Origin: Candidatus Yonathbacteria bacterium
Lineage (GTDB): Bacteria > Patescibacteriota > Minisyncoccia > Phycocordibacterales > JACNGX01
Direction: 5' to 3'
Assembly: GCA_013334825.1 (NCBI GenBank)
Contig: JAAXWR010000002.1
Span: 100,025-153,008, forward strand
DNA: 52,984 bases
Translations under genes and position numbers: made by a program
Shown here: positions 1,284-39,718 of the stretch, in pieces
Position numbering within the stretch: position 1 is the first letter of the stretch
Layout of the letters: each line of letters opens with the position of its first letter
Notes under the pieces: generated by a model
What the model saw: the letters and a program-made list of their open reading frames with translations, nothing else
What the model was told of the DNA's origin: nothing
Database searches by the model: none

Positions 1284-1961
1284 ATGTTAAAGAAAAAAGA
1301 ACAAGTGCTGTACATTGCACATTCCGCGACAGATTGGCGTAGCCGAATGTTGAGTAATGACGTAGGTGCTTTTGTCATGATTGACGGAGAAGAAAGACGC
1401 CTGTTCCCCAGTGTGACGCAGTTTATTGAGATGATAAAATATCCTGAACATTCAGGATGGAGTCATCTTGATGAGTCACGTCTTTCCTTTGATGCAGAAA
1501 AAGAAACGGTTACCCTTGGAGAGTCAGACGTTTCCGATTCTGTCGGATATATGTGTGGTCGCCCGTATAATCCTGTGGTCTTTCATGCAAATAAGGGACT
1601 TGACTATCGGGAAATACTGAAACAATGTAGCCCCGATATAGCAAGGAAAATTGGATCGAAACTTCGTCCAGGGAGAGTCGTCGTGTATCTGTTTGGTAAG
1701 ACTTATCGGTACGGTTCCGCAGAACATGTTGCGCTTATTGAACAGGCGATTCGGGCAAAGTTTGCGCAAAACGAAACGGCTTTCAAGGCACTTCTTGCCA
1801 CGGAAGGATTGGAGCTTCGCTACGTCCCTCGTCGGGGCAAAGATTCAACACTTTTTTCTGCCGAAATGTTTTGCAAACTTCTCACAGAGATACGTGAAGC
1901 ATGTCTTGCGAAAAGAGATGCATATCGGCAGACATGTACAAACGGATGTGCACAGGTATAA
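1284..1961 (+). CDS. hypothetical protein, weak NADAR (DUF1768)-like
   Basis: 225-aa ORF. Segment AEHVALIEQAIRAKFAQNETAFKALLATEGLEL resembles the NADAR/YbiA helix pattern. The family call is tentative. Confidence 0.45.
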   Translation: MLKKKEQVLYIAHSATDWRSRMLSNDVGAFVMIDGEERRLFPSVTQFIEMIKYPEHSGWSHLDESRLSFDAEKETVTLGESDVSDSVGYMCGRPYNPVVFHANKGLDYREILKQCSPDIARKIGSKLRPGRVVVYLFGKTYRYGSAEHVALIEQAIRAKFAQNETAFKALLATEGLELRYVPRRGKDSTLFSAEMFCKLLTEIREACLAKRDAYRQTCTNGCAQV

Positions 1962-2043
1962 GGAAAACAAAAGCCACAGGGTCATACCTGTGGCGTTTTT
2001 TATATGTGTTATGAAGTGATAGGTGATGTTATACTATATGCAT

Positions 2044-2117
2044 TGCGGGGTCGTCTAACGTGGTAAGACACGGGCGCTTTGAACGCTTGTATCTGGGTTC
2101 GAGCCCTAGCCCCGCAT
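2044..2117 (+). tRNA. tRNA-Gln(UUG), copy 1
   Basis: Cloverleaf read by hand: acceptor TGCGGGG/CCCCGCA, D stem GTCT/AGAC, anticodon loop CTTTGAA (anticodon TTG), T arm CTGGG-TTCGAGC-CCTAG. No encoded CCA. TGTTATACT extended -10 lies upstream. Confidence 0.85.
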
Positions 2118-2387
2118 CAAAAAGCTCGCTTTTTGATGCGGGGAGCGGGGCGACTGCTCGTCCCGCGTCTAGGGTTCGAAAGCCACAGCGATGTCTGAGC
2201 GATTTATCGCGAAGACCGCGAGGAGAATTATTTACGATATGCCGGAATGATTTTAACAGTAATAAAGAAGAAGTATCTTAAATGTGTGCATTTGTCTCAT
2301 AGATTGAAGATATTACACAATACGTTTTTGTATGCAATATAACAAATCTGTTGCGTCTTTTTGGTGATACGGTATTATACTGTATAT

Positions 2388-3104
2388 ATGTCTTTATCTC
2401 ACGAGACGCTGACGGCTCCGGCCGAGGCAGGGTCAGTTGACTCATTAGAAAAACGTTTTAATGAACTAAAGGTCGAAAGAGAAAAAGTAGAACAAAGTAT
2501 TCGAGAGTCTTTCGATATTAAACGCTTGAAGGTGTATGTATCGATAGTTAATAGAGTGCATGCTCAGGAAGGGATAGATGATACCGAGAATATATTACGT
2601 AAGCGTCTTGAAGAGCTCGGAGAAGATTATGATGAATTAAAAAAAATGTATGAAGGATATCTGGCATATAAAGCGCAAAATCTTGATGTTATCGTTACAG
2701 AAATGCAACAAGTACAAGCATCAGCCATTAAAAAGTTTCAAGAAGACATAAAAAGAGACATTGCAGAAGCAGGACTTTTTGCGGAAGCGCTGAAGAGGGA
2801 AAAGGATGTATATCTATTTTCGCTCCTCACTGAGATTGTGCAATATGAAGAAGGTTTCATAGCTTCGGGGAAAAAAGAAGATTCTCTCGATTCAATTCTT
2901 GAGGATCAACCTGCAGATATACAAAAAAAATATTTTGGCTTGAAATGGGCATATAGTGAATTGGAAGCAATGGAGGGGCCCTTTATACAAGGGTCGTATG
3001 ACAGGGAAAGGTTTGTATATGAAATTCTTAAAGATTTGGGCATTACGATTGATACTGGACATTCGTTGATTTTTAATCGTAGAATGGAATCTCTAGAAAG
3101 ATAA
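2388..3104 (+). CDS. hypothetical protein (charged, coiled-coil-like)
   Basis: ATG at 2388 sits 6 nt after TATACT (2376-2381). No recognisable family. Lies between the two identical tRNA-Gln genes. Confidence 0.6.
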   Translation: MSLSHETLTAPAEAGSVDSLEKRFNELKVEREKVEQSIRESFDIKRLKVYVSIVNRVHAQEGIDDTENILRKRLEELGEDYDELKKMYEGYLAYKAQNLDVIVTEMQQVQASAIKKFQEDIKRDIAEAGLFAEALKREKDVYLFSLLTEIVQYEEGFIASGKKEDSLDSILEDQPADIQKKYFGLKWAYSELEAMEGPFIQGSYDRERFVYEILKDLGITIDTGHSLIFNRRMESLER

Positions 3105-3115
3105 TAAATATGACT

Positions 3116-3151
3116 AAACACACGGCGACCTATTTAGGCTGCCGTGTGTTT
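3116..3151 (+). terminator. hairpin after the 2388-3104 gene
   Basis: 11-bp stem aaacacacggc / gccgtgtgttt with a 14-nt loop. Confidence 0.5.
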
Positions 3152-3194
3152 AGTTGGAAACTATTCTAAAAGATATGTTATCATGCACCTATAT

Positions 3195-3268
3195 TGCGGG
3201 GTCGTCTAACGTGGTAAGACACGGGCGCTTTGAACGCTTGTATCTGGGTTCGAGCCCTAGCCCCGCAT
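3195..3268 (+). tRNA. tRNA-Gln(UUG), copy 2
   Basis: Positions 3193-3270 are identical to 2042-2119, giving the same cloverleaf. Confidence 0.85.
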
Positions 3269-3270
3269 CA

Positions 3271-3433
3271 GAGCGAAGCGATGATGTGGGGCTAGGGCTC
3301 GAACGCGGAGGGGGTCGGGGAACCTGTTGGTTCCTTGTGGAGGAAGTACATGGAACCGTGGGTTCCATGAGCGCAGCCCAGCCCTTTCCACCGAAAGGGC
3401 TGGGCGAGCAGTGAGTAGCCCTAGCCCCGCATC
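3271..3433 (+). ncRNA. GC-rich multi-hairpin module ending in a copy of the tRNA-Gln 3' end (function unknown)
   Basis: Perfect stems at 3319-3334, 3349-3369 and 3376-3405. 3288-3304 is the exact complement of tRNA positions 3248-3264. 3417-3433 repeats tRNA 3253-3269. Confidence 0.35.
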
Positions 3434-3469
3434 CTACAATATTTATTCTCATTTCTCATTATTACTACC

Positions 3470-4213
3470 ATGACAAACCTCACAGGAACCATTGCCCTTG
3501 TTACTGGAGCGTCAAAAGGTATCGGACGCGCGACGGCAATCGCCCTCGCGAAGGAAGGGTGTTCGGTCATTATCAATTATAAATCCGACGCCGAAGCAGC
3601 CGCCGATACTCTCAAAGAGTGCGATGCCTATTCACAAGGTAACATGACGATTGTGGCGGATGTTTCGCGCGAAGAGGATGTTGCTCGGATGTTCAACGAT
3701 ATCGAGAGCAGATACTCCCGCCTGGATGTTCTTGTTAACAATGCAGGGATATTTGACGAGCGTGACAGTCCGACAAATATTGAAACATTTGAGCATATAT
3801 ACAGAAATAATTTTCTCAGTGCTGTTATCGTTACCAAATATACACTGTCTCTTATGAAGGAAGGTAAGATTGTGAACGTGTCCTCCATCCATGGGAGACT
3901 TGGGTACGGTCGGCCCGGGGCGATTGCATACGCGGCATTCAAATCTGCACTTGAGAGCTATACGAAAAATCTTGCAAAGGAACTTGCCCCTCATATATGT
4001 GTGAATGCCATTGCCCCTGGGAGAACACTTACACCGATGTGGGGTACTTTGAGTGAGGATGAGCAAAAAGAATTGGGGAAGGGACAGCTCATCGGTCGTA
4101 TGATAGAACCGGAAGAAATTGCCGACGGTATTCTTTTTCTCATCAAAAATGATGCAATGTGTGGCGAAGTGATGACGATGGATGGCGGTATGGGAATCGC
4201 ATATCTCAAATAG
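3470..4213 (+). CDS. SDR-family oxidoreductase (FabG-like)
   Basis: TGASKGIGRA cofactor motif, NNAG, and catalytic YAAFK (YxxxK). Confidence 0.9.
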   Translation: MTNLTGTIALVTGASKGIGRATAIALAKEGCSVIINYKSDAEAAADTLKECDAYSQGNMTIVADVSREEDVARMFNDIESRYSRLDVLVNNAGIFDERDSPTNIETFEHIYRNNFLSAVIVTKYTLSLMKEGKIVNVSSIHGRLGYGRPGAIAYAAFKSALESYTKNLAKELAPHICVNAIAPGRTLTPMWGTLSEDEQKELGKGQLIGRMIEPEEIADGILFLIKNDAMCGEVMTMDGGMGIAYLK

Positions 4214-4217
4214 CGGT

Positions 4218-4679
4218 ATGAAATGGCAACACCCACCGATTATCAAAATATACGAAGCGCTTGGTGCCGTTGCTGACGGACGTATTGATGTATTAGAGAA
4301 TACGGCAAAAGTGTATTCATCCAGCCGGAACAAATGGTATGACGTTGTGTATGATGAGACGACGGGTGCCATTATGACGAACGATAACGGATCGTATTGG
4401 AAAGAGTATCTTGGGTATCCGTCTATCGCATTTTTCTTTGTGAAAGGAATACTTCCATATGATGCGCGCATGGGTGAATTGCTCAAAGGTATTAAGTGGA
4501 AAGATATCAATCAAGAATTCAAGAACGATTTTGACAAGACCCTCGCACATATCGAATCATCGCTCTCGTCGCCTGAGAGTGAAGCACTTGCTATATATGT
4601 TCGTGATATTGATACCCGCATTGCGACCCTCGCTCCGGACATGTTCGGTAAGAAAATACTGCCACCCGAGGGGTACTGA
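4218..4679 (+). CDS. hypothetical protein
   Basis: ATG 4 nt after the SDR stop. 153 aa, no recognised family. Confidence 0.55.
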   Translation: MKWQHPPIIKIYEALGAVADGRIDVLENTAKVYSSSRNKWYDVVYDETTGAIMTNDNGSYWKEYLGYPSIAFFFVKGILPYDARMGELLKGIKWKDINQEFKNDFDKTLAHIESSLSSPESEALAIYVRDIDTRIATLAPDMFGKKILPPEGY

Positions 4680-4703
4680 GTTGCTGGAATCTTCCAAAGA
4701 GCG

Positions 4704-4712
4704 TGCTATAAT
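4704..4712 (+). promoter_or_regulatory. extended -10 (TGCTATAAT) upstream of tRNA-Gln(CUG)
   Basis: Exact TGnTATAAT match 29 nt before the tRNA 5' end. Confidence 0.55.
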
Positions 4713-4741
4713 GCCCTCATATATTGAATATTGCGGGATCG

Positions 4742-4815
4742 TCTAATGGTAGGACATCGCCCTCTGGAGGCGAGTATCTAGGTTCGAGTCCTAGTCCCGC
4801 AGCCAGTCTGGACAC
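4742..4815 (+). tRNA. tRNA-Gln(CUG)
   Basis: Acceptor TGCGGGA/TCCCGCA, anticodon stem TCGCC/GGCGA, loop CTCTGGA (anticodon CTG), T arm CTAGG-TTCGAGT-CCTAG, discriminator G and encoded CCA. Confidence 0.9.
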
Positions 4816-4853
4816 TGTTCCTGAGACCAGGACGGGTCATATAAAATTAACCT

Positions 4854-5498
4854 ATGGCAGAAAAAGATATGACAGACAAGATTCAGTCTTGTTTAAATCA
4901 GGGTGAATCTATAACAGAGGATCAAGTCAGGTCCTTAATGATTTTGGTGCGTAAGCATCTTGAGCTCATGTCTGATACAGACATGCTGCAATTTTTAACA
5001 CTCAACCTATTTTGTAATTGGTGCGCTCATATAGAAATTACACAATCAAATACAGGCCTGCGAACTCTCGCAAAGATTAATGATGTTTTGGTGCGCGTAA
5101 AAAATTCAACAAACACTGATCACATGCTCGCGGAAATATCGGGTGCAATTGGTCTCGATGTGCTTCGTGCAGAGCTAATTACTTTCTTATCTCGAATTGG
5201 AGTTACACATCGTTTGGATCAGAGAGCAGAGTGGGCGGCTTTTCTAAAGTGCTTACTTGAAGTTGTTCGTGATGTGCCACTAGCATTTCCTCCGATTGCT
5301 AAACTCAACAAGGGAGCTCAAAAAATCTACGATCAGATTGCTCAAAATCCGATTAAGCCCGGGGCAGGGGTAATTCGCGCTACTATTTCAAAGGTAGATT
5401 ACGGCACTCTTGGAGCAGGAGAAGGAGAATTATGGTGTCTCCTAATACGGACTGAAGATACTACTACTCTCATTGCTCCTCTCCGTATCCTCGTCTAG
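4854..5498 (+). CDS. hypothetical protein
   Basis: 214-aa ORF. ATG 6 nt after TAAAAT (4842-4847). No recognised family. Confidence 0.6.
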   Translation: MAEKDMTDKIQSCLNQGESITEDQVRSLMILVRKHLELMSDTDMLQFLTLNLFCNWCAHIEITQSNTGLRTLAKINDVLVRVKNSTNTDHMLAEISGAIGLDVLRAELITFLSRIGVTHRLDQRAEWAAFLKCLLEVVRDVPLAFPPIAKLNKGAQKIYDQIAQNPIKPGAGVIRATISKVDYGTLGAGEGELWCLLIRTEDTTTLIAPLRILV

Positions 5499-5503
5499 TG
5501 GAT

Positions 5504-6841
5504 TCATGAAGGGTTTTCGAGCAATACTTTTTTGTTTATCAGAGTAAGCTTACTTTTAAACGACTGCATCAGCTCGCGCTTCTCCGCGACGGTTCCTTTT
5601 TTGAGAATATATTTTGCATAGGATCGTAGGTCTAAGCCGCTCTGGTCGGTTATCTGGTCTTCGGTTAAGCCAAGTACATTATTACGGAAATTACTGAAGC
5701 GCCCCATCTCTTTTTCGAGTTTTTCTTTAATTCCAATCTTATCTATTTGGATCTTGTCTAAGATCGCTAAAAGTTGTTCGACAAGACTGTCCTCACGCAA
5801 ATAGGTGTTTTTACACGACTTGTCATAAAATCGGGTACAGCCATAGTAGATGTAGCTGTTCGTAGATCCGTCTTTTAGATTTTTAAACTTCTCCTGTGCG
5901 GTTATACCAGAATTACATATTCCGCATTTCATCAGGCGAGTAAATGCAAATTCTTTCACCGCTGGCCCATGCGGTTTATGCGAATCAAGTTTTTCCTGGA
6001 CCTTCTTGAATAACTCCTGACTGATGATTGATTCGTGTCGGCCGATATTCCACCTACCACTCTTCCGTGGGTACTCGAGCAGTCCACAGTAAAAAGGATT
6101 TCGGAGAACGGTGTGCACGTTGCTAAGAGTGAAGGGCTTACCACTTTTGGTTCTAAATTTTAGGTCATCCTTCAACCATCTGTATAACGCTCTTCCACTC
6201 CACTTTTCGTACGCCACTTTTTCAAACATGATTTTGATGACGTGAGAGCGTTGAGGATCGAGAATGACGTGGCATTTCTTGGTGCGATCCGGGTGGTTGA
6301 GGTATCCGGTTGGTGCAACACTCGGCCACAGTCCCATTTCAATCCTGGTGCGAAGTCCGCGCTTCACGTTGACACTCTTATTATCGTTATCAAGCTTCGC
6401 CTGACTACAAAGAATCATCAAGAGGAACTTTTCGCTTGGAGAGTTGGTGAAGCGTTGCCCGTACGTTTTTACTTCTATCAGTTTGTGCTGATCCATCAGG
6501 TCAACAATTGAGCCGAGGTCGCCGGCATTTCTTGAGAGGCGATCGGGATGCCAAGCAAGAATACCGCCAAATCGACCCTCTTTAATTTGCCGGATCATCT
6601 CATTGAAGACCGGTCTCTGAGCAGTCTCTTTTGCCGAGTGCGACTCGCGTTTAATCTCTGTCACCTCGATTCCGTCTCGCTGGGCTAACTGCAACATCTC
6701 CTTGATCTGGGAATCGATGGACAGAGCCTGCTTTTCATCCGATTCGCTCGATTTACGGGCGTATAGGCAGTATTTGGGCGCTTCTATAGGAGGCGCCGGG
6801 TCAGAATTCAACTCTAGCGGGTTGCTGATGTGCATACACAC
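5504..6841 (-). CDS. large serine recombinase (resolvase domain + recombinase domain + zinc ribbon)
   Basis: N-terminal YARKSSESDEKQALSIDSQ resolvase-type catalytic Ser region. Later CGICNSG ... YYGC zinc-ribbon-like cysteines. Confidence 0.85.
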   Translation of the reverse strand: MCMHISNPLELNSDPAPPIEAPKYCLYARKSSESDEKQALSIDSQIKEMLQLAQRDGIEVTEIKRESHSAKETAQRPVFNEMIRQIKEGRFGGILAWHPDRLSRNAGDLGSIVDLMDQHKLIEVKTYGQRFTNSPSEKFLLMILCSQAKLDNDNKSVNVKRGLRTRIEMGLWPSVAPTGYLNHPDRTKKCHVILDPQRSHVIKIMFEKVAYEKWSGRALYRWLKDDLKFRTKSGKPFTLSNVHTVLRNPFYCGLLEYPRKSGRWNIGRHESIISQELFKKVQEKLDSHKPHGPAVKEFAFTRLMKCGICNSGITAQEKFKNLKDGSTNSYIYYGCTRFYDKSCKNTYLREDSLVEQLLAILDKIQIDKIGIKEKLEKEMGRFSNFRNNVLGLTEDQITDQSGLDLRSYAKYILKKGTVAEKRELMQSFKSKLTLINKKVLLENPS

Positions 6842-9057: not shown

Positions 9058-9334
9058 TCTTGAGCCTTGTTGTATATAAATTAACCTAAGCTAAGCTAGA
9101 AATAGGTAGCAAATTTTGCTACAATTATTTAACAGTTCGGCCTAAACTTGTCGGTTAACTCCGGCAAGCATGGCAATAAATACCCGCTAGAGATCAAAGG
9201 ACTCCTGGTCAGAGTCACTCTAGCGGGTCATATCTGGAAACAGGTATGGGTTCGGCCGAAAGGTTGGATCGCGATGGTCAGGAGCCTTTTGATTATCTGG
9301 TTCACTCCGTCGATTAAAAACCCGCTAGAAAATT

Positions 9335-13223: not shown

Positions 13224-14312
13224 ATGTTTATGTTCTCATCACTATTTGAACGTCAGACAGCAAAACAAGAAGGACAACATGATGTGTATGTCCAACACAA
13301 AGGAAGAGTTGCCGAAGCGGGTGATAGGTTTGTGCACGTCATGGCAGTCACACTTGATCCACAGACGGGTTACAAAGATGGTATTATCCGTTGTATTACG
13401 AGCAGGGAGGGAGAGTATGGTGTTGCTGGACAACTTGATAGAAGTGCATTATTCAAGATAAAAGCGGATTCTCTCGACAAGTTTGAAATTACAGAAGAAC
13501 TCAATATAAAGAATGCCGGGAATGTCATCACCAAGCTTAAAGGTGAAGGCGGAGATTTTATCGGTCTTGAAGATCCAGATATATGGAGAGATGAGGAAAC
13601 TGGATTGATGCATATATATTTTACTATGCCAGTGAAATTGGAAGAGAAAGATGCACAAGGTGATGACATATGGAATGTGCATTTGGGTCATGCTGTTGGA
13701 AAAGATTTGGATTCTTTGGAGATGACGGAACCGACACTCTTGGGAACTGCGGAGATGAATGCGAAAGAAGTGTCTATTGCTCCAAAAAACTCTGAGGGAT
13801 TTCGATACAATCTCTTTGAATCAAGTGATGAAAGAGATGGAGAAACCTATTCTGTCGTGCGTGTTGCGATTGCTCGTGATATGGGGAAGCCGTGGGAACT
13901 CGGAGAAATTGCCTTTCATCCGGCCGAGCACAATATCCCGTGGATTGCAGGACATGCTTCACCTGGCCCTCTTTTGTCGAAGAATTTTATTGATGTAGGA
14001 GAGAATAAATTGCTTGGAATCATGAATGGATGCGAAGCGAATAAGCATGAAGGAGACAAAATCATCTACGGCGCATTCACTGCGGGATTGTATATATATG
14101 ATTATGAAAAGGGAATGATTGATTGGGTTTCACCCGAACCTCTTATCTGGGATACGGAAGCGAGTGCAAAGAGACCTATTACATTTGCCAGTCAATTTGT
14201 GGAAGGTGCGAAAGGAGAGGGAACACTATATGCCCATGTTGATGATTCATTTGTGCGTGCATATACACTGAATGCGGAGGCACTCAAAGCGCTGTTGCCA
14301 GAAAAGAAGTGA
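13224..14312 (+). CDS. hypothetical protein
   Basis: 362-aa ORF. ATG 6 nt after CATAAT (13212-13217). GLEDPDIW is faintly glycosidase-like, but no firm call. Confidence 0.55.
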   Translation: MFMFSSLFERQTAKQEGQHDVYVQHKGRVAEAGDRFVHVMAVTLDPQTGYKDGIIRCITSREGEYGVAGQLDRSALFKIKADSLDKFEITEELNIKNAGNVITKLKGEGGDFIGLEDPDIWRDEETGLMHIYFTMPVKLEEKDAQGDDIWNVHLGHAVGKDLDSLEMTEPTLLGTAEMNAKEVSIAPKNSEGFRYNLFESSDERDGETYSVVRVAIARDMGKPWELGEIAFHPAEHNIPWIAGHASPGPLLSKNFIDVGENKLLGIMNGCEANKHEGDKIIYGAFTAGLYIYDYEKGMIDWVSPEPLIWDTEASAKRPITFASQFVEGAKGEGTLYAHVDDSFVRAYTLNAEALKALLPEKK

Positions 14313-14318
14313 TATTTG

Positions 14319-14350
14319 CTTATCTTTTCAGTGTAAAAAGATAAGTTTTT
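14319..14350 (+). terminator. rho-independent terminator
   Basis: Stem cttatcttt/aaagataag followed by ttttt. Confidence 0.65.
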
Positions 14351-14357
14351 ATGTTTG

Positions 14358-14419
14358 GAAAAAGGCAAAAATCTCTCGCATGTTTGATGTTTTCTGCTAT
14401 AATCGGGGAATGGAAGAAT
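14358..14419 (+). promoter_or_regulatory. repeated promoter/5' module, copy A (TGCTATAAT at 14395-14403)
   Basis: About 62 bp, near-identical to 15448-15510. The -10 ends 6 nt before ATG 14410. Confidence 0.6.
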
Positions 14420-15396
14420 TTCCTCTCAACAAAAAAGAATCGGGAATCAACAGAGTTGTTGGCTTTGACCATGAAAAGGAAACTGATTTTTTGGATTATT
14501 TCAAAGAAAAATTTGAAAGAAATTTTTTAGAATATGGAGAGAGAGAAAAGACCCTCGAAGAAATTGCCATTCTTAATCGTGTTAATAAGGATATGGTAGA
14601 GTTTTTACGGCATTACGGAGTTGAGGCAATTGAGATATCTCCCAATAATATTCATATACTTGATAAATCAAGATTTACTTCAGAAGAATTAAAAAAAATT
14701 CAAGAAAGATTTGGGACAGAGAGTGGTTTCTATTCTTCAAACAAACAAGGAGTCGGGATCATGAAAGATTATGAAGAAAATAAACTTTCTTTTCTTCAAA
14801 CTGTAGTGCATGAAGAACTTCATCTTCAAGGGTTCTATTCGTATCAAAAAAGTCTTCATGAAGGTGCAGAAATTACTTTAAAAAAAGAAGATGATTTGGT
14901 AGATATGAACACCCGAAGATCAGGGTTTTCTATGGGCACCACTGATGGAAAGACTCTGTTTTTTCGTGATGTTAACGAAGCTATCATTACTGAACTGCAA
15001 ATTCGTTTTGAACGTATGTTTTTAGAAAAATATCCCGAGTTAGAATCAGAGTTAGAAGCACGTGATGATTATATACAAGAAGTGGCAAGGAGAGATGATG
15101 CTCCTATAGAAAAAGTAAGAGAAGTGGTTGGAAAAGTCATTATAAATGAGGATGGGGAACGAAAGTGGAGAAGTTATGCATATCATGAAGAGCGCAAGAA
15201 GTTTGCTGAACTTATTGATGAATTGTATAAAAAGAACATGTCAGATTTTGAATCGAGAGAAGATGTGTTTAACCTCTTCGCACAAGCAACTTTGACGGGT
15301 AGGGTTCTCCCTGTTGCAAGATTGATTGAAAAAACATTTGGAAAGGGGGCATTTAGAAAACTCGGTGAAGGAAGTGCAGAGAATTATGTGGAATAA
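14410..15396 (+). CDS. hypothetical protein with HExxH motif (putative metallopeptidase)
   Basis: VVHEELHLQG motif. I place the start at MEEFPLNK because the upstream part of the long ORF is a DNA-level promoter repeat. Confidence 0.55.
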   Translation: MEEFPLNKKESGINRVVGFDHEKETDFLDYFKEKFERNFLEYGEREKTLEEIAILNRVNKDMVEFLRHYGVEAIEISPNNIHILDKSRFTSEELKKIQERFGTESGFYSSNKQGVGIMKDYEENKLSFLQTVVHEELHLQGFYSYQKSLHEGAEITLKKEDDLVDMNTRRSGFSMGTTDGKTLFFRDVNEAIITELQIRFERMFLEKYPELESELEARDDYIQEVARRDDAPIEKVREVVGKVIINEDGERKWRSYAYHEERKKFAELIDELYKKNMSDFESREDVFNLFAQATLTGRVLPVARLIEKTFGKGAFRKLGEGSAENYVE

Positions 15397-15447
15397 CATC
15401 GTATATACTCATGTATATGTTGCGTAAAAGAGACATTTCGCCTACGT

Positions 15448-15510
15448 GAAAAAGGGCAAAAATCTCTCGCATGTTTGATGTTTTCTGCTATAATCGGGGG
15501 ATGGAAGAAT
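15448..15510 (+). promoter_or_regulatory. repeated promoter/5' module, copy B (TGCTATAAT at 15486-15494)
   Basis: Same sequence as copy A with one inserted G and one substitution. The -10 ends 6 nt before ATG 15501. Confidence 0.6.
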
Positions 15511-16286
15511 ATCTTACATTTGCAAAAGAACTCGCCAAAGAGGCCGAGGAAATTGCGTTGAAATATTTCGGTTTTGATACCGAGACGACGTGGAAAGGGG
15601 ATAATACACCGCTGACGCAGGCGGATACGGAAATTAATGATTTGGTTATCCAAAGGGTTAATGAGCGATATCCCGAACACAGTATATATGGAGAAGAGAA
15701 AAGTGATAGAAAAGAAGGTGCCGAATATATCTGGGTGTGTGATCCTATTGATGGCACGATGGCTTTTTCGTGCGGAATGTCAGAGTTTGTATTTTCTATT
15801 GCGTTGGTAAATGTATCAAACGGCTTACCTGTGTTTGGATTGATACATAATCCGATAATGAAAAATACATATTGGGCGCATAAAGATGGCGGAGCATATA
15901 GGGATGGAAAAAAGATTATAGTATTAAAAAAAGAAGATTTTGCAAATACATATTTAAGTACTGGGGCTTCAGGACGTGCACTTGGTTTTTCAAATCTCCC
16001 TCTTTTAAAAACATTGAGTGAAAAGAAATGCGCGACGATGAAATTCCCGGGGTTTATCTATGGTGCGATACAAGTTGCAAATGGAAAATATATCGGCGCA
16101 GTGTATTATCATAAATATGCTCACGATGTCGCCGCGCTCAAGATTATTACCGAGGAAGCGGGTGGCAAAGTAACCGATTTAAATGGAGAAGAAAGGCGAT
16201 ATGATGAAGACGGTCTTGGCTGTATCATTTCAAACGGCATCCTCCATGATGAATTGGTGCAGATTGTGCAGACGGGGAAGGTATAA
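15501..16286 (+). CDS. inositol monophosphatase family protein
   Basis: IYGEE metal site and the WVCDPIDGT signature. Confidence 0.9.
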   Translation: MEEYLTFAKELAKEAEEIALKYFGFDTETTWKGDNTPLTQADTEINDLVIQRVNERYPEHSIYGEEKSDRKEGAEYIWVCDPIDGTMAFSCGMSEFVFSIALVNVSNGLPVFGLIHNPIMKNTYWAHKDGGAYRDGKKIIVLKKEDFANTYLSTGASGRALGFSNLPLLKTLSEKKCATMKFPGFIYGAIQVANGKYIGAVYYHKYAHDVAALKIITEEAGGKVTDLNGEERRYDEDGLGCIISNGILHDELVQIVQTGKV

Positions 16287-19286: not shown

Positions 19287-19501
19287 AAGTTTTTGTGTTA
19301 TACTAGCCTCTTACGAACGAATCTCTCGTCTCTTTTTCTTTTTATGGTCTCGTTTATAGTTTATCGTTTACCGTTTTCTTCTTCATAATTTGCCTTTCGT
19401 ATTCTTGATTCGTGCTTCTTGATTCCCTGCACCACGTAGGATGCAGGGCACGCTTAATTCGAGTGTCCGCCCCTATCACCTCTAACCTATTTCCTCATTT
19501 T
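19287..19501 (+). repeat. pyrimidine-rich mosaic intergenic repeat (family F), locus 1
   Basis: Modules: TTATCGTTT, tcgtattcttgattcgtgcttc, hairpin ccctgca-N10-tgcaggg (19425-19448), cacgcttaattcgagtgtccg, and tatcacctctaacctatttcc. Shared with the loci at 26422, 39202, 42061 and 52597. Confidence 0.85.
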
Positions 19502-22942: not shown

Positions 22943-22988
22943 TATTTCGTCCTCCTCCACACAAGTGCAAAGAGGAAGATGAGTACTG
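22943..22988. repeat. 46-bp direct repeat, copy 1 (relic of the znuB 3' end)
   Basis: Identical to 23867-23912. Read on the minus strand it encodes ...VLIFLFALVWRRTK-stop, like the ZnuB C-terminus. Confidence 0.9.
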
Positions 22989-23072: not shown

Positions 23073-23783
23073 TTATTTCCCATCAGCACCTCTTTTTTTC
23101 AAAGCTTCAAACTGTTTTCTTTGTCGTTCCATATAGCCTGAAAGCAGTTGAGCATTTGTTTTGAGAAGATGTGTTGTAACAGATTCAATTGTCACATTAG
23201 GAACAACTTTCTCCATTTTTTCTTTCAATATGGAAAAATTATCGGGTTCTATAAAAGATGTTCCGAGACAGAGAATCAATTTTGGGAGAAAACAATCTAA
23301 TGTATGAAGTGAGATTGTTACTTCCTCCGCCGTTTCTCCCCAGCAAAGGATTTTATCACTCTTTAACATAAGATAACCGAAAGTGTCAGAAAAGACAAAA
23401 TCAGACATCATGATAACGATGTCAAACTTTTTTTCGATTTGCATTATATTTTTGTTAAAAAATATATCTGCTCTTTCAGTGTTCGAGCATCTGTCATTTG
23501 CTTTTTCTGGTTTTTCTAAACCAACAAAGATAGGTATCTCAGTTTCAGTAAGATACCCAAATGGAGATGAAAAATCATCTTCCGTCAGGGCGCGTTCAAT
23601 CCAAGGCAGTTTCTTTGAATTTGAATTTGGTATTAAAAATTTATTTGCAATCATACTATGTCGATAGATTCTCGACATATCGATAATTGCAAGTCGTTTT
23701 CCTGATGTTGAAAGCTGTACTGCTAAAGCATAGCAGTAATAAACGGGCGATTGATCACCAAGACTAATAACACTGAGTATCAT
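23073..23783 (-). CDS. hypothetical protein, ParA/MinD-like fold lacking a Walker A lysine (tentative)
   Basis: ILSVISLGDQSPVYYCYALAVQLSTSGKRLAIIDM and FDIVIMMSDF align in layout with the ParA P-loop and Walker B regions, but GKT is absent. Confidence 0.4.
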   Translation of the reverse strand: MILSVISLGDQSPVYYCYALAVQLSTSGKRLAIIDMSRIYRHSMIANKFLIPNSNSKKLPWIERALTEDDFSSPFGYLTETEIPIFVGLEKPEKANDRCSNTERADIFFNKNIMQIEKKFDIVIMMSDFVFSDTFGYLMLKSDKILCWGETAEEVTISLHTLDCFLPKLILCLGTSFIEPDNFSILKEKMEKVVPNVTIESVTTHLLKTNAQLLSGYMERQRKQFEALKKRGADGK

Positions 23784-23865: not shown

Positions 23866-24672
23866 CTATTTCGTCCTCCTCCACACAAGTGCAAAGAGGA
23901 AGATGAGTACTGATAAGAGAACAATAGTGGCGCCAGTGGGGATGTCGGCAAAAAATGAGAGTGTGATACCGATAAGAATAACGCTTATAGCAAGGAACAC
24001 AGAAAGAGTCATTGCACCACCAAAGCTCTTGGCCAGCTGAAGTGCGGTAACAGCAGGAATGACAAGAAGCGCTGAAACAAGAAGAACGCCAACTGCTTTG
24101 ATGGAGAGAACAACAGCAATGCCGGTGAGTGCCATGAGAAGCGCTTCGATAAGTTTCGTGTGAATACCACTTGCACGCGCAAGTGATTCATCGAATGTTG
24201 TGAGGAAAAATGTGTGATAATTGACGAGGACAAGAACTGCTACTATGACAGAAAGTGCTGCGGCAAAAACAATTTCCCATGTCGCGACAGCGAGGATATT
24301 ACCAAAAAGATAGGAAAAAAGGTCCACGTTAAAGCCTTGTGCCATACTGGCAAGAAGTACTCCTCCTGCCACGCCTGTTGCTGATATGATACCAATTGCC
24401 GCATCACCAAAAAGTGTCGCGCGTTCGGTGAGTTTCCCTATACCAAGTGAGGCAAGGACGACAATAGGAACAGCGACCACAAAAGGATACATGCCCATGA
24501 CCATGCCGAGAGCAATTGCGCCGAATGATACGTGTGCGAGACCATCACCGATGAGCGCACGATTGCGGAGAACAAGAAGAAGTCCGAGCATGCCCGCGAG
24601 TGCGCCGATACACACACCTACGATATAGGCATGCATGATAAATCCATAAGAAAAAAGTGAGAATATATCCAT
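23866..24672 (-). CDS. znuB: metal (Zn/Mn) ABC transporter permease
   Basis: ABC-3 family pattern LRNRALIGDGLAHVSFGAIALG. Start placed at MDIFSLF, 1 nt after the znuC stop. Confidence 0.9.
   Translation of the reverse strand: MDIFSLFSYGFIMHAYIVGVCIGALAGMLGLLLVLRNRALIGDGLAHVSFGAIALGMVMGMYPFVVAVPIVVLASLGIGKLTERATLFGDAAIGIISATGVAGGVLLASMAQGFNVDLFSYLFGNILAVATWEIVFAAALSVIVAVLVLVNYHTFFLTTFDESLARASGIHTKLIEALLMALTGIAVVLSIKAVGVLLVSALLVIPAVTALQLAKSFGGAMTLSVFLAISVILIGITLSFFADIPTGATIVLLSVLIFLFALVWRRTK
23867..23912. repeat. 46-bp direct repeat, copy 2 (functional znuB 3' end)
   Basis: Identical to 22943-22988. Confidence 0.9.
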
Positions 24673-25443: not shown

Positions 25444-26421
25444 TTACTTGCAACGAAGTCCAGCACGGAGTGTCGCAAGATTCGTTTCAAGTATGGTGAT
25501 GAATGAGACACCATTGTCGCGTGCATCTTTACCAATATTTCCCGCCGGGTTTAACATATGTACTGTAGCTCCAGTCTCACGTGCAAGCGTGTCAGCGATA
25601 GCCGGACTTTCAAGTGCATCGGTAAATATTGCTGTTGCGTTTTCTTTTTTTACAATATCAGAAAGAGTAGCAAGCGCTGATGCGGAAGGTTCAGCGTCAG
25701 GGGAATATCCTTGGGCCGCGACATAGTGAAGGTCGAATGCTTCGGCAATGTATCCGAATGCGTAATGACCACCGTAGATGATTGTACGCGTATCACACGA
25801 AGAAAGCCCTGTTTCGTACGCGGCGAACACGGCATCGAGTTTTGCAAGATATGTGTCACGAGCATTGGCGATGTCTACGGAATGAGAGGGAAGCGCTTCT
25901 ACGAGCGCAGTGCCGATATCGTTCGCGATTACATGAGCATTGTGAGGTGAGAGCCAAATATGTGGGTCGCCCGCTTCGTGATCGTGGTCATGTTCTTCCG
26001 CTTCGTGTGCTTCTTCACTCTCATGTGCCTGTTCATCTTCTCCGTCTTCGTGATGAATGTCAGCATGGGTACTCGCATTGACAATAGTCATATGTGATGT
26101 ATCAATACCTGCAAGTAAATCAGCAACCCATGGTTCCATAAAAGGACCTGTATAGATAAACACATCTGCATGGGTAATTGCCATAATGTCAGAGGGTGTT
26201 GGTTCGTAGTTGTGTGGACTCATGCCGGGAGGAAGAAGGAGCGTTGTCTCAGTATATGTACCACCGATTTCACGTGCCATATCATAAAGTGGAAATAGTG
26301 TCGTTACTACGAAAAGTTTTTCCGAAGGTTTTGTGGAGGACGTATTTTGGATGATGAAGGTAAGAGCACCAAATATAATAACAAGCGTGACGATAATAAG
26401 TATGAGACGAGAGGTAGACAT
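25444..26421 (-). CDS. znuA: metal ABC transporter substrate-binding protein with His/Asp/Glu-rich loop
   Basis: TroA/ZnuA cluster-9 fold pattern, signal-anchor N-terminus, and loop HHEDGEDEQAHESEEAHEAEEHDHDHEAGDPH. Confidence 0.9.
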   Translation of the reverse strand: MSTSRLILIIVTLVIIFGALTFIIQNTSSTKPSEKLFVVTTLFPLYDMAREIGGTYTETTLLLPPGMSPHNYEPTPSDIMAITHADVFIYTGPFMEPWVADLLAGIDTSHMTIVNASTHADIHHEDGEDEQAHESEEAHEAEEHDHDHEAGDPHIWLSPHNAHVIANDIGTALVEALPSHSVDIANARDTYLAKLDAVFAAYETGLSSCDTRTIIYGGHYAFGYIAEAFDLHYVAAQGYSPDAEPSASALATLSDIVKKENATAIFTDALESPAIADTLARETGATVHMLNPAGNIGKDARDNGVSFITILETNLATLRAGLRCK

Positions 26422-26700
26422 AGTATATGGGGAAATAGGTTATAAATATAGGAAAGAGGTTAGAGGAACGGACATTCGAATCAAGCGTGCCCTGCATCCT
26501 ACGTGGTGCAGGGAATCACGAAGCACGAATCAAGAATTAAGGGTTACGAAGTACGAACTTGTACGAACATACGAAACGAGACGGGAATCAAGAATACGAG
26601 AGGCGAATGAAGAAATATGAACGTAGGAAATAGGTTAGAGGTGATAGGTTATAGGGACAGACGGGAAGCATGCTGAGATGTTAGGTTTATTCTTGCGCCT
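26422..26700 (-). repeat. family F intergenic repeat, locus 2 (inverted orientation)
   Basis: Reverse complement carries the same modules, including hairpin 26490-26513 and TAACCTATTTCC (26431-42) 9 nt upstream of the znuA ATG. Confidence 0.85.
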
Positions 26701-27064: not shown

Positions 27065-27085
27065 AAATAAGTGAATGAAAAAACT

Positions 27086-27199
27086 CAAATCACAAATTCC
27101 AAATCACAAATAATATTGAGTAATCAATAGATTATATAATATGTCTTATTATATATGTTTGAATATTGATATTGTTTGGGATTTGGTGATTGAGATTTG
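27086..27199. promoter_or_regulatory. operator-like repeat set between the DUF134 and DUF5320 genes
   Basis: caaatcacaaat occurs twice (27086-97, 27100-11). An imperfect inverted partner gtttgggatttggtgattgagatttg lies at 27174-99. These flank an AT-rich core. Confidence 0.45.
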
Positions 27200-27258
27200 A
27201 ATCGTTACCATGTACGCATTGTCTATCATATCATGTATCGCGTATTTCGGGTATTGAT

Positions 27259-33568: not shown

Positions 33569-33680
33569 CGGTAGGGCTCGTCCCGCAGTCACTAAGCGGA
33601 TTGCTCCAAGTATTCGCAATCCGCAAAGTGCTGCTCCCCGCGGCGCGGCGACAAGCATGCGCGAACAGGCCACGCATCTT
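33569..33680 (-). repeat. family-E structured element fused to a copy of the tRNA-Asn 3' end
   Basis: The reverse complement aligns along about 110 nt with 43197-43313. Hairpin 33596-33624 has loop GAATACTTGGA. The terminal cggtagggctcg equals the tRNA-Asn 3' region (34431-34442). Confidence 0.8.
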
Positions 33681-34506: not shown

Positions 34507-34758
34507 TATTTGATTGTAAAACAAAACTTCTTATAAACAATTCCGTATATCTGCCAAAACAGCTACTTCGGAACAGTATATGTATTTGATTGTAAAACAA
34601 AACTTCTTATAAACAATTCCGTATATCTGCCAAAACAGTTATGCGGGAATATTGATACTACAATCTTTTGTAGTGTTTTGTGAGATTGGGACAAACCCGT
34701 ATATCTGCCAAAACAGCTACTTCGGAACAGTATATGTATTTGATTGTAAAACAAAACT
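34507..34758. repeat. 76-bp tandem repeat (one full copy plus two partial copies, the last after a 58-bp spacer) between tRNA-Asn and pyk
   Basis: Unit tatttgattgtaaaacaaaacttcttataaacaattccgtatatctgccaaaacagctacttcggaacagtatatg. Copies at 34507-34582, 34583-34638 (partial) and 34697-34758 (partial). Confidence 0.9.
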
Positions 34759-34962: not shown

Positions 34963-36444
34963 ATGAAGAAAACTCATATTATCGGTACTATCGGTCCTGT
35001 TTCAGATTCTGTTCCTGCGCTCAAAAAATTGATTGGAGCAGGGATGAATGTTGCACGTCTCAACTTCTCGCACGGTGACTGGACGACACATGAGATGGCA
35101 TACAACAACGTGCGTCAGGCGGCAAAAGAAATGAATCGAACAGTGCCTATTATGCAAGATCTTATGGGTCCAAAGATTCGTATTGGTGATTTTGCGACTG
35201 AGTTTGTGACGCTTAAAAAAGGAGGAAAATTTACACTTGTAACGGAGAAAAAAATCGGCGATGAAACACATGCGCATATTACCTATGAAGGATTGTATAA
35301 GGATGTGAAGAAAGGTACGAAAATTCTTCTCAATGATGGAAAGATTGAATTGACAGTAAAAGAAATAAAAGGAACAGATATTGTGTGTAAGATAGATGTT
35401 GGTGGAAAAATTCGTGGACGTCGTACTGTCAATGTGCCAGGAGCATATCTCAAGATTTCTTCACTTACCGCAAAAGACAAAAAAGATTTAACACTCGGTA
35501 TGAAGCTCGGTGTCGATTTTGTCGCGTTTTCATTTGTGCGTACCGCTGATGATGTGCGTGAACTCCGTGCGCTTCTTAAAAAATATAAATCCTCAGCAAA
35601 AATTATAGTAAAACTTGAAACACCTGAAGCGGTAGAGAACATCGATGAAATTATTGAAGAGACGGATTCTGTCATGATTGCACGTGGTGACTTGGCAGTG
35701 GAAGTACCACGAGAAGATGTTCCCATGATTCAAAAACGTATTATTGAACTTTGTAATGCAGCAGGAAAGCCTGTAATTGTGGCAACGCAGATGCTCGAGA
35801 CAATGATTACTGAAGCACATCCAACACGTGCCGAGGTAAGTGATATTGCCTATGCGGTGCTTGAAGGTGCAGATGTGCTCATGCTTTCAGCAGAAACAGG
35901 TGTAGGAGAATATGCAGTGGAGGCGGTGTCTACGATGGCACGCGTTGCAAAGAAAGCAGAGAGTTATGTGGAGCCAAAGAAAATAAAACGTACGCACGCT
36001 GTCTGCCCTCCCGAAGGAGTGTGCGCGTATGATGTAGTAGATTCTGTAAGTGAATCAGCGGTTGATATTGCACGTTCGGTGCATGCAAAAGTGATTATTG
36101 CTTTGACACAATCGGGATTTACTGCACGGATGATTTCACGTTTTCGTCCCAAACAACCAATTCTTGCCGTGACGACAAATGATGCAACATATCATCAAGC
36201 TGAGTTTTCATATGGTTGTTATACGCATAAGATTAAACAATTCGGAAATATTGATGAAGTGTATGGTGAGGTAGATCATCTTGTCCTCGGTGAAAAACTC
36301 GCCAAGAAAGGGGATCGTGTAGTTATCGTTGCAGGACTTCCGTTTGGTAAGATTGGTGGGACAAATATGATCATGGTGCACGTTGTGGGAGATACAACAG
36401 ATAGAACAGGGACAAAAAAAGAGAAGGCAAAAAAGAAAAAATAA
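34963..36444 (+). CDS. pyk: pyruvate kinase
   Basis: KIIGTIGP, NVARLNFSHG, MIARGDLAVE and the rest of the PK barrel. Lys-rich C-terminal tail TKKEKAKKKK. An alternative ATG lies at 34957. Confidence 0.95.
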   Translation: MKKTHIIGTIGPVSDSVPALKKLIGAGMNVARLNFSHGDWTTHEMAYNNVRQAAKEMNRTVPIMQDLMGPKIRIGDFATEFVTLKKGGKFTLVTEKKIGDETHAHITYEGLYKDVKKGTKILLNDGKIELTVKEIKGTDIVCKIDVGGKIRGRRTVNVPGAYLKISSLTAKDKKDLTLGMKLGVDFVAFSFVRTADDVRELRALLKKYKSSAKIIVKLETPEAVENIDEIIEETDSVMIARGDLAVEVPREDVPMIQKRIIELCNAAGKPVIVATQMLETMITEAHPTRAEVSDIAYAVLEGADVLMLSAETGVGEYAVEAVSTMARVAKKAESYVEPKKIKRTHAVCPPEGVCAYDVVDSVSESAVDIARSVHAKVIIALTQSGFTARMISRFRPKQPILAVTTNDATYHQAEFSYGCYTHKIKQFGNIDEVYGEVDHLVLGEKLAKKGDRVVIVAGLPFGKIGGTNMIMVHVVGDTTDRTGTKKEKAKKKK

Positions 36445-36474
36445 AAAATGAAAAAGAAAAAACGATAAACCAGA

Positions 36475-36512
36475 ACATACACGGCGGCCTACTGGACGCC
36501 GTGTATGTTTGT
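36475..36512 (+). terminator. hairpin terminator after pyk
   Basis: 12-bp stem acatacacggcg/cgccgtgtatgt. Confidence 0.65.
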
Positions 36513-39121: not shown

Positions 39122-39201
39122 GAGAAAAAACGATACGATTGATATAAAGAATAGTATCGCAGAACGAAAAAGGACGCAATGTTTTTTGACGTAGATACCA
39201 T

Positions 39202-39700
39202 GCGGATTAGAAGCGAAAGGTGAGTTTCCCGCGACGTCTCTGCTATGGTGGGGTGGATAAATTTTAAGAATGTTTATGAAGATTACGAATAATGAATGTA
39301 TACGAATACGATTTTTTTTATCGTTTATAGTTTTCTCTTCCCATATTCCTTATTTCTATTTTCTTATTTCATTGTCTATAGTTTTCGTTTTCATATTTCT
39401 ATTTTCTTATTTCATCGTCTATCGTTTATAGTTTTCGTCTTCATATTTCATATTTCATCATTCGTCTTTCGTATTCTTGCTTCATGCTTCGTGATTCGTG
39501 CTTCGAGTATCTGTCCCTATAACCTATCACCTATAACCTCTTTCCTACGTTCATATTTCATCATTCATCTCTCACATTCTTGCTTCATGCTTCGTGATTC
39601 GTGCTTCGAGTATCTGTCCCTATAACCTATCACCTATAACCTCTTTCCTACATTCGTCCGTCCCTATCACCTCTAACCCATTTCCTACATTCATATTCCC
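39202..39700 (+). repeat. family F intergenic repeat, locus 3 (expanded)
   Basis: T/C-rich modules with TTATCGTTT (39318, 39420). Includes the 103-bp tandem duplication and a third partial distal module (39652-39690). Confidence 0.85.
39448..39651 (+). repeat. tandem duplication, 2 x 101 bp (period 103)
   Basis: 39448-39548 and 39551-39651. The distal portion of about 75 nt is identical; the few mismatches are all near the 5' part. Confidence 0.9.
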
Positions 39701-39709
39701 AATAGAGCA

Positions 39710-39718
39710 TGATATACT
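39710..39718 (+). promoter_or_regulatory. extended -10 (TGATATACT) of pth
   Basis: Ends 7 nt before ATG 39726. Confidence 0.5.

Follow-up and report, generated by a model that had tools for sequence, protein, structure and literature searches.

What kind of repeat places the same pyrimidine-rich modules, in the same order, in five spacers of one stretch of bacterial DNA, and at three of these just upstream of a start codon? The repeat, here called family F, lies in a 52,984 nt stretch of a Candidatus Yonathbacteria bacterium (assembly GCA_013334825.1, contig JAAXWR010000002.1, positions 100,025 to 153,008; the whole stretch is referred to as the window, with its first letter as position 1), and the original prediction described it as a genome-specific family resembling repetitive extragenic palindromic (REP) sequences or miniature inverted-repeat transposable elements (MITEs), or else as a shared 5' untranslated or regulatory element. 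The copies are dispersed and follow a common module order, and in close relatives they have diverged through swapped modules, tandem duplication and indels (7, 28 and 35 nt among them); a 7-nt periodicity, overlooked in that prediction, is the main structural feature. With moderate confidence, we read family F as a mosaic intergenic repeat of the short tandemly repeated repetitive (STRR) or long simple sequence repeat (LSSR) kind combined with that of REP sequences and bacterial interspersed mosaic elements (BIMEs), which would be driven by slippage and recombination, would be mostly weakly constrained, and would act as a leader without a Shine-Dalgarno (SD) sequence where it is transcribed beside a start codon.

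The five loci with modules in one conserved order could be read back from the window, in numbers far above those in dinucleotide-preserving shuffles of its 52,984 nt. For the box TAACCTMTTTCC (with at most 1 mismatch) 0.53 matches are expected and 8 were found, all within the five loci; the corresponding numbers are 0.01 and 5 for the B module CGTATTCTTGMTTCRTGCTTC, and 0 and 3 for the hairpin CCCTGCACCACGTAGGATGCAGGG, the three hairpins being at 19425-48, 26490-513 and 42167-90 (the last with 2 mismatches). A repeat search also aligned 19401-19490 with 26448-26537 (90 nt, 90% identity) and 26576-26661 with 39510-39595 (86 nt, 86% identity), and recovered an internal tandem duplication of 103 nt (95%) in locus 3. 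The sense strand is indeed pyrimidine-rich (70-74% pyrimidine, 9-13% G), and the peptide ...RIKRALHPTWCRESRSTNQE shared by the spurious open reading frames (ORFs) at 19354-19479 and 26333-26620 is the antisense translation of modules D-C-B. The predicted extents hold for the repeat parts and have to be trimmed at 19287-19345, where the depth is 1x, and at 39202-39295, since 39122-39295 is 95% conserved in a relative; both are unique flank. The TTATCGTTT boxes are restricted to loci 1 and 3, and a module missing from the predicted list, G, consists of TTCGTAN heptads (26526-26578) and is frequent in related genomes.

All modules except the hairpin are arrays of degenerate heptanucleotides with a pyrimidine core, namely TTATCGT/TTTATAG in module A, TGCTTCG/TGATTCG in B, TTCGTAN in G and TAACCTA/TCACCTC/TTTCCTA in E. 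Tandem Repeats Finder (TRF) reported period 7 at 19350, 39474, 39516, 39577, 39619 and 52612, with the units TCGTTTA, TTCGTGC, CCTATAA and CCTATTT, and in a sliding analysis period-7 autocorrelations of 0.5-0.73 were limited to the family F loci and a few other spacers (window mean 0.26, sd 0.06). Locus 3 keeps a single 7-nt register over long stretches, from ATATTTC ATCATTC GTCTTTC through TGCTTCA TGCTTCG TGATTCG to TAACCTA TCACCTA TAACCTC TTTCCTA. The units are degenerate (68-88% TRF matches; 84-88% in arrays of 3-5 copies) and their type shifts along the element. Family F has the head-to-tail intergenic 7-nt arrays that define STRR and LSSR sequences; near-perfect single-unit arrays are absent from its loci, and the only perfect one, (CAACTCG)x10, is found in a relative (L013).

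Heptads of other sequence, TTTGGAN/TTTGTGA and (CAACTCG)x10, occupy other spacers of this lineage, which fits a general tendency to 7-nt slippage, as reported for bacterial LSSRs (Mrazek 2007, as cited in PMC4679880). An array of TTTGTGA TTTGGAA TTTGTGA TTTGAGT at 27067-27110 of the window (minus strand) reaches the start codon of a DUF134 gene, its mirror image at 27150-27200 (plus strand) faces the divergent gene, and the same class adjoins the RuvC start in the relative L042 (approximately 4225-4296); start-adjacent heptads are thus not confined to family F. The perfect array of L013 (8897-8966) lies directly 5' of a TATACT-type -10 box and a pilin-like gene (N-terminal FTLIELLVAVSIIGLL), where it is possibly a slippage-controlled, phase-variable promoter. 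In an unrelated high-GC organism, an intercistronic element repeated at L002 3310-3425 and 4385-4500 consists of a stop codon, a GC hairpin, heptads on the purine strand (GGGTCAT GGGTGAT...), a spacer, and CCCATAA/CCTATAA heptads running into the ATG, which is an independent instance of G-free heptads at start codons.

The arrays change readily between relatives. Contig Ga0194119_10000852 is syntenic with the window and approximately 90% identical to it. At the znuA ortholog (L003) identity is 99% in the unique spacer and 94% in the element's distal half, while the proximal B-hairpin-D half has been swapped for two E arrays (58% identity), with a 21-nt indel. The pth ortholog (L010) lacks the 103-nt duplicate, one E array and 35 nt of B, with gaps in 201/402 aligned columns; identity is 95% in its unique spacer, 100% at the promoter-like site and 62-89% at third codon positions. 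Paralogous copies in the source assembly differ by indels of 7, 7, 7 and 28 nt. The arrays thus appear to be the least length-constrained part of the spacers, and the orthologous indels and swaps indicate that units slip, stretches are duplicated in tandem and whole modules are exchanged from copy to copy. In the comparison of relatives for presence or absence, suggested with the original prediction, the orthologous znuA and pth loci are both filled, with rearranged modules. The relative has a different gene after GNAT at locus 1, synteny stops at the PBP2 stop codon at locus 4, and the 5' boundary differs in each copy.

Copy number was obtained from two biofilm metagenomes in which the window is present at 95% of sampled words. 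Single-copy depth was approximately 170 and 300-330 in the two assemblies, and the summed contig depth reached 3600-6170 for modules B and C, 1670-3580 for D and E, and approximately 3300 for 39384-39504. Summed against unique depth, this corresponds to about 10-37 genome equivalents, i.e. about 10-37 copies of the modules per genome, and many contigs at genome-like depth break off within the repeat.

Contrary to the original prediction, family F is not genome-specific, since it is present in related candidate phyla radiation (CPR) contigs from several other metagenomes, and hot-spring, lake, soil and freshwater runs contain relatives of the window. Of the 13 loci recovered when metagenomes were scanned with the E pattern, 11 are on eight contigs from related CPR genomes and keep the module order in a blastn module map (e.g. 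EGBCDE, BCGGDE, GCGBEEE and AABBDE); contigs with ordered modules belong to Ga0194119/25/26/27, Ga0209835 and ERZ27245471. Two further loci were the only matches of a protein-database search with the spurious antisense peptide, because gene callers rarely call such ORFs. The GTDB genomes nearest in PBP2 are metagenome-assembled genomes (MAGs) labelled 'Parcubacteria group' (69% identity) and 'Ca. Saccharibacteria' (61%), which places the window in a CPR (Patescibacteria)-like bacterium. CPR genomes within this range of 61-69% contain G-type heptads as outward-facing inverted pairs around a core, in or adjacent to divergent-gene spacers. The E-box pattern had no match in GTDB species genomes, and neither the E nor the G pattern had one in viral contigs. 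A match from Hainich (L001) was rejected as an unrelated reverse-orientation match, the purine strand of which supplies an SD sequence. The inverted rc(G)-core-G cassettes of L014 (12996-13099 and 14872-14965) and L015 (8154-8260), two CPR genomes with PBP2 61% and 69% identical to that of the window, have a conserved 37-nt core (GTTGTTTCGGAAAATGAATTGCAGGGTATACATTGTG); this cassette is absent from the window, and may be MITE-like or a portable divergent-promoter unit.

The hairpin is a module separate from the heptad arrays. It folds at -14 to -28 kcal/mol, with z-scores of -3.4 to -6.3 for the simple forms, and in an alignment of 17 distinct instances 91.5% of cells pair and 4/9 pairs are changed on both sides, a covariation matched by 0/500 shuffles; the set was taken from the CPR loci and three phage contigs, single matches without the outer stem being left out by choice. 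The loop (A-C-G...G-G) is invariant, and longer forms resemble a hairpin inserted in the loop of another. A covarying stem with a conserved loop is the pattern that would be expected where a single strand is recognised in its folded form. Hairpin bins have 21-37x the single-copy depth, and all copies in the window and the CPR loci are intergenic. Three contigs encoding MuA- and MuB-like proteins also have a 26/26 identical hairpin in multiple intergenic copies, again at odds with a genome-specific family; nothing besides the hairpin is common to these Mu-like contigs and the CPR loci. In the Mu-like contigs (L021, L022 and L023 from IMG/VR, with MuA phrog_310 and MuB phrog_296) the hairpins are intergenic, lie directly 5' of GGAGG-type ribosome binding sites, and are partly tandem or nested. 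Most lone matches to the 16-nt hairpin core in viral contigs were discarded as chance matches inside genes without an outer stem.

An intrinsic terminator does not fit, since hairpin C is followed by CACGCTT instead of a T run, and a terminator scan was blank at the loci. Rfam gave no match at E <= 1 at the family F loci of the window, nor in the related loci and phage contigs, and sub-threshold 'miRNA' matches in L004 and L008 reflect long inverted heptad arrays. Literature searches with the hairpin sequence returned unrelated primers only.

The modules are laid out as follows, with gene neighbours assigned by Pfam. In locus 1, an extended -10 promoter-like site (TGtTATACT, 19296-19304, plus strand; consensus match CTGAGA-18-TATACT) follows the GNAT stop codon and precedes the repeat, in DNA of single-copy depth (19287-19342), which would place locus 1 in the 5' leader of MATE. 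On the plus strand the repeat then runs from A-type T-rich heptads (19346-19394; approximately four copies of TCGTTTA, including TTATCGTTT; TRF period 7 at 19350-19376; depth 2-3.6x) through the B module (19395-19425; TTCGTAT TCTTGAT TCGTGCT TCTTGAT TC; summed depth 21-33x single copy), hairpin C (19425-19448; CCCTGCACC-ACGTA-GGATGCAGGG; -14.3 kcal/mol, z -3.7; depth up to 37x) and the D module (19447-19469; CACGCTTAATTCGAGTGTCCG; 16-21x) to the E heptads (19470-19498; CTATCAC CTCTAAC CTATTTC CT; 10-16x). These end 3 nt 5' of the MATE ATG at 19502, the depth falling to 1x at 19499; the TAACCTATTTCC box is at 19483-19494, and the start region is predicted to be unpaired, with a minimum free energy (MFE) of -0.3 kcal/mol. 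Locus 2, between the DUF134 and ZnuA genes, is a complete minus-strand mosaic, E-(B fragment)-G-B-C-D-E (26431-26665), with E at 26623-26661, G at 26526-26578, B at 26513-26540, hairpin C at 26490-26513, D at 26468-26491 and the proximal E at 26431-26466, and ends 9 nt before the znuA ATG at 26421.

Locus 3 starts with short inverted heptads of the TTCGTAT type (39263-39303, minus strand; the plus strand reads TACGAAT AATGAAT GTATACGAATACGA), which face a divergent signal-peptidase gene, an outward-facing arrangement also seen in L014, L015, L008 and L004. Its main copy, the longest (39310-39697, plus strand; autocorrelation up to 0.73; depth 7-19x), consists of A-type heptads (39310-39460), a B-E unit (39447-39549), the 95% tandem duplicate of this unit (39550-39652) and a third E array (39656-39691). 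A promoter-like TTCATA-17-TATACT with TG (39690-39718, plus strand; consensus match) follows, 7 nt before the pth ATG at 39726, and is the site fully kept in L010. Locus 4 (42066-42260, minus strand; depth 5-8x) contains B-type arrays (42066-42137), hairpin C in a degenerate form (42167-42190) and a fragment of G (42190-42226), and lacks both an E array and a downstream start codon; it lies, as predicted, between convergent genes (PBP2 and DUF1801). Locus 5 (52605-52643, plus strand) is E-only, CTA TCTCCTA TAACCTA TTTCCTA TTTCCTA, and fills a 51-nt spacer from the stop codon of an M48 peptidase gene to the GDPD ATG at 52646 (start-region MFE 0.0). Two A-like T-rich tracts, 1117-1180 and 36401-36475 (minus strand), were rejected as members; the latter is the Lys-rich 3' end of a pyruvate kinase gene with its flank, and is conserved in L010.

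It had been correctly seen that the box ends shortly before three start codons, 7 nt from MATE, 9 nt from znuA and 11 nt from GDPD, all Pfam-confirmed genes; that is, forward heptamer repeats lie at these distances from SD-less start codons at 3/5 window loci. The weight given to the box occupying the SD position was misplaced, since SD-like 4-mers precede just 4/54 predicted starts of the window, on which all start-codon statistics are based (background 12%), and TGnTAnnnT sites lie directly 5' of 5/54 (background 1.7%). This suggests that the genome is SD-poor and has some leaderless or short-leader genes, so that a box at the SD position is unremarkable in itself. The gene upstream of MATE, znuA and GDPD is co-directional in each case, there is no -10-like site between the E array and the MATE ATG, and a TATACT adjoining the znuA ATG comes too late for that start and is not conserved in L003. 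At MATE, and judged by eye at znuA too, promoter-like sites precede the element, which together with the co-directional upstream genes suggests that the E array is part of the leader or intercistronic RNA. A search for RNA runs containing the locus returned none. At these three genes family F probably also serves as an unstructured SD-less leader; among the 54, their -40 to +20 regions have the least structure (0.0, 0.0 and -0.3 kcal/mol; mean -7.05, sd 3.9), and the MFE fold of the whole locus 1 leader leaves the E array and start codon unpaired.

The idea of a shared 5' untranslated element would therefore stand for three genes, and fails at pth, where the TG-extended TATACT lies downstream of the repeat, so that pth probably lacks a leader and has the repeat in the DNA upstream of its promoter. 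A set orientation relative to genes was not found either: copies at MFS/BipA (L012, L041) and YebC/RuvC (L042) are anti-oriented to both neighbours, co-directional spacers have 4 co-oriented vs 2 anti-oriented copies, and there is no strict rule. Three further candidates were set aside. Mimicry of the anti-SD sequence was considered since ATCACCTC matches the 16S 3' end, but variant units (ATCACCTA) break the match and there is no downstream SD sequence to sequester. A Rho utilisation site was discounted because Rho prefers a C spacing of approximately 11-13 nt, not 7, and a replication-strand bias because copies point both ways along the window.

Family F resembles several known repeats without matching any of them. 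Heptamers are given as the commonest LSSR class and put down to slippage of the polymerase (Mrazek 2007, as summarised in PMC4679880). Shared with LSSR and STRR sequences are intergenic head-to-tail 7-nt arrays, several unit types per genome, many loci and length change by whole units; in family F, however, the units are degenerate, the unit types are joined in a set order and copied as a block, a hairpin is embedded, and the host is a CPR bacterium instead of a cyanobacterium. TAACTGA direct repeats of marine Beggiatoaceae, cyanobacteria and Bacteroidetes have been proposed as an RNA-level platform, with S1, Csp (cold-shock) proteins and CsrA as candidates and the function untested (MacGregor 2015, PMC4679880). 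They likewise place 2-6 forward heptamers within a few nt of SD-less start codons of genes without a common function, whereas the family F units are TAACCTA, TCACCTC and TTTCCTA, the arrays form the 3' terminus of a longer mosaic, and many copies are away from start codons, some of them inverted.

The REP and BIME sequences of enterobacteria and pseudomonads share with family F a short imperfect palindrome that is G+C-rich and present in many copies, strict extragenic location, a mosaic with conserved linkers, and frequent co-transcription with neighbours. They differ in that family F copies carry a single hairpin, or two pointing the same way, in place of REP pairs of alternating orientation, that the linkers are heptad arrays, that the GTAG motif is within the hairpin loop (CGTAGG) instead of beside the stem, and that no gene for a REP-associated tyrosine transposase (RAYT) was found in the DNA examined. 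The BOX element of Streptococcus pneumoniae is another modular intergenic repeat (boxA, variable boxB, boxC) with a set order, a variable number of modules and no encoded transposase, and its modules are 45-59 nt units which fold into extended RNA structures. Modularity, set order and variable module number are common to both, but there is no sequence relation and family F is mostly unstructured heptads. In Haemophilus influenzae, perfect 7-bp tracts between the promoter and start codon of hmw1A and hmw2A cause phase variation by slippage (PMC8262952, PMC12721329); these are single-unit tracts at specific contingency genes, whereas family F arrays are degenerate and dispersed. Tandem interspaced guide RNA (TIGR) arrays have an adjacent tas (Nop-domain) gene and units of approximately 36-54 nt, with two variable 9-nt spacers flanked by box C/D and stems around the spacer pair (bioRxiv 10.64898/2026.09.09.750476). 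This class was rejected, as the neighbours are MATE, ZnuA, Pth, PBP2 and GDPD, the hairpin encloses just 5-6 nt, there is no 36-nt period, and the sequences between copies are conserved and not spacer-like. The literature searches made here returned no description of such repeats in CPR bacteria.

On the slippage and recombination reading that we favour, heptad arrays would arise and be resized through slipped-strand mispairing between 7-nt units and would be homogenised or shuffled by inter-copy recombination or gene conversion, and the hairpin would spread as a separate, hairpin-specific mobile module. Most of this DNA would be weakly constrained filler. The last E array beside the MATE, znuA and GDPD start codons would be transcribed as leader or intercistronic spacer, giving a G-poor, structure-free, SD-less initiation region on which ribosomes may load without SD pairing. 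Several observations weigh against this. Slippage alone cannot carry a 90-nt block to a non-homologous locus, and neither a transposase nor a RAYT was found in the DNA examined. Modules are 97-100% identical between genomes of which the third codon positions are just 62-89% identical, and this needs ongoing homogenisation, recent spread or selection. Some indels are not multiples of 7 (e.g. 20-21, 10 and 31 nt), the depth-derived copy number may include co-occurring strains, and the leader inclusion and promoter positions are suggested by consensus matches. Finally, E arrays abut start codons in 3/4 E-bearing window loci, above random spacer placement; this excess and the mechanism of dispersal are the main weaknesses.

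The adjacency to start codons could alternatively reflect an RNA platform, in which the heptads, especially E at starts, would bind a protein with an oligonucleotide-binding (OB) fold and a footprint of approximately 7 nt, such as S1 or a cold-shock protein, to recruit ribosomes or regulate SD-less genes. Several points speak for this: Bacillus CspB binds pyrimidine-rich heptanucleotides, the E box ends at similar distances from the three start codons and arrays extend right to the ATG in related loci (L007), the G-poor sense strand is predicted to be unpaired through the start codon in a genome nearly devoid of SD sequences, and TAACTGA repeats offer a parallel case with S1, Csp and CsrA as candidate binders (MacGregor 2015, PMC4679880). 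We nevertheless consider it unlikely, as the start-proximal box is not kept at the orthologous znuA start of the approximately 90% identical relative, which has TAACCTAACCCTTTTAC instead, and the arrays are the most indel-prone part of the spacers. Copies that are anti-oriented to both neighbours (L012/L041, L042) or between convergent genes are hard to reconcile with such a platform, as are the pth array upstream of a promoter-like site, the lack of a common function among MATE, ZnuA, GDPD and Pth, and the several unrelated heptad sequences which take the same position at other genes. The more ambitious proposal, in which the heptads would be the landing platform of SD-independent CPR initiation or regulation through OB-fold proteins (S1 or Csp) and the hairpin would in addition be mobile between these bacteria and Mu-like phages, is speculative and rather a long shot; if true, the hairpin exchange would tie Mu-like phages to CPR hosts.

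It is also improbable that the heptads act at the DNA level, as iterated operators, UP-elements or nucleoid-protein sites bound cooperatively near core promoters and tuning the flanking genes. Such a role could account for the arrays ending just 5' of TGnTATACT-type -10 boxes at pth, at the L009 gene and at the divergent pairs of L014 and L015, and for the symmetric outward-facing arrays in divergent spacers. The heptad period and direct-repeat geometry are also those of known heptad operators, such as the WATCACW arrays bound by the omega repressor of pSM19035. The diversity of heptad sequences, however, would demand many binders or a non-specific one, copies are also present in promoterless convergent 3' spacers, and unit sequence and copy number are free to vary in close relatives in which the promoter-proximal unique DNA is conserved; no candidate binding protein was linked to the loci.

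A non-autonomous transposable element (MITE, REP/RAYT-type or IS200/IS605-type), moved whole in trans by a transposase encoded elsewhere, would explain the dispersed copies that are 86-100% alike at non-homologous loci and in different genomes. The covarying stem and conserved loop, as at recognition sites for single-stranded hairpins, the nesting of hairpins in hairpin loops, the hairpin in common with transposable Mu-like phages, and the inverted G-core-G cassette with its conserved 37-nt core in L014 and L015 would all agree with it. The A-E unit itself, however, has no terminal inverted repeats or recognisable target duplication, its ends vary with a 5' boundary unique to each copy, the A/B end shows no complementarity to the E end, and none of the copies is bracketed by a local inverted repeat; inverted arms are found only in the separate G-core-G cassette, and module content varies from copy to copy. 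A domain scan of 46 window proteins and the precomputed Pfam annotation of L041 and L042, covering approximately 5% of one genome, gave no match to Y1_Tnp, and neither the window nor the annotated related loci yielded a Y1/HUH or DDE transposase, the sole recombinase being the serine recombinase of a tRNA-Gln island. We thus regard transposition of the whole element as very improbable, and of the earlier 'REP/MITE-like' label we retain the dispersed intergenic family of REP/BIME kind and drop the MITE part, for which no terminal inverted repeats, visible target duplication or nearby transposase were seen. Independent low-complexity drift in AT-rich spacers, to which the simple composition and the other heptad arrays of the window might point, can be dismissed, since module order is kept across genomes, the long inter-locus matches and the exactly repeated 24-nt G+C-rich hairpin are not of this kind, and motif counts exceed those in shuffles 15- to 500-fold.

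CPR (Patescibacteria) genomes are small, yet approximately 2% of the window, and about 10-37 sites per genome, are taken up by this fast-changing mosaic repeat. Family F breaks short-read assemblies, which matters for the binning and finishing of CPR genomes, and provides hypervariable strain markers. It is a second independent example, after the TAACTGA repeats, of heptamers at the position of the ribosome binding site in an SD-poor genome, and its start-adjacent heptads open SD-independent initiation in this lineage to testing. A possible link between phage and host is the hairpin, which Mu-like phages also carry.

The remainder of the window contains several other repeats and putative integrated elements. 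Between 2044 and 6841, an exactly duplicated tRNA-Gln(TTG) (2044-2118 and 3195-3269) is accompanied by further tRNA 3'-end fragments, a tRNA-Gln(CTG) at 4732 and a large serine recombinase gene (5504-6841), and this region looks like an element integrated at tRNA-Gln. Similarly, a tRNA-Glu in the region 42888-47579 is followed by several fragments resembling tRNA 3' ends (CCCCGTAGGGT repeats), a 120-nt repeat at 43025/43319 and a 103-nt inverted match to 33578-33680, together with a Gabija-like pair, consisting of an ATPase with AAA_15 and OLD-TOPRIM domains (43597-45696) and a UvrD-like helicase (45678-47579), and then an Imm5-like protein; the region is probably a defence island that integrated at the tRNA. 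Unrelated to family F is a 76-nt tandem repeat of 3.3 copies (34507-34758; two copies 95-98% alike), which lies between tRNA-Asn and the promoter region of pyruvate kinase. At 22943-22988 and 23867-23912, 924 nt apart, a 46-nt direct repeat without mismatches (TATTTCGTCCTCCTCCACACAAGTGCAAAGAGGAAGATGAGTACTG) flanks the ORF 23073-23783 beside the end of znuB. A 67-nt repeat with 94% identity (14356-14422 and 15447-15513) contains a TGCTATAAT promoter-like site and is present at the 5' end of the ORF 14272-15396 and upstream of an inositol monophosphatase gene (15471-16286), the start codon of which it overlaps, and may be a duplicated promoter cassette. Finally, a LOOT RNA (RF03000) matched at 9139-9270, with 79 bits vs a gathering score of 46.4.

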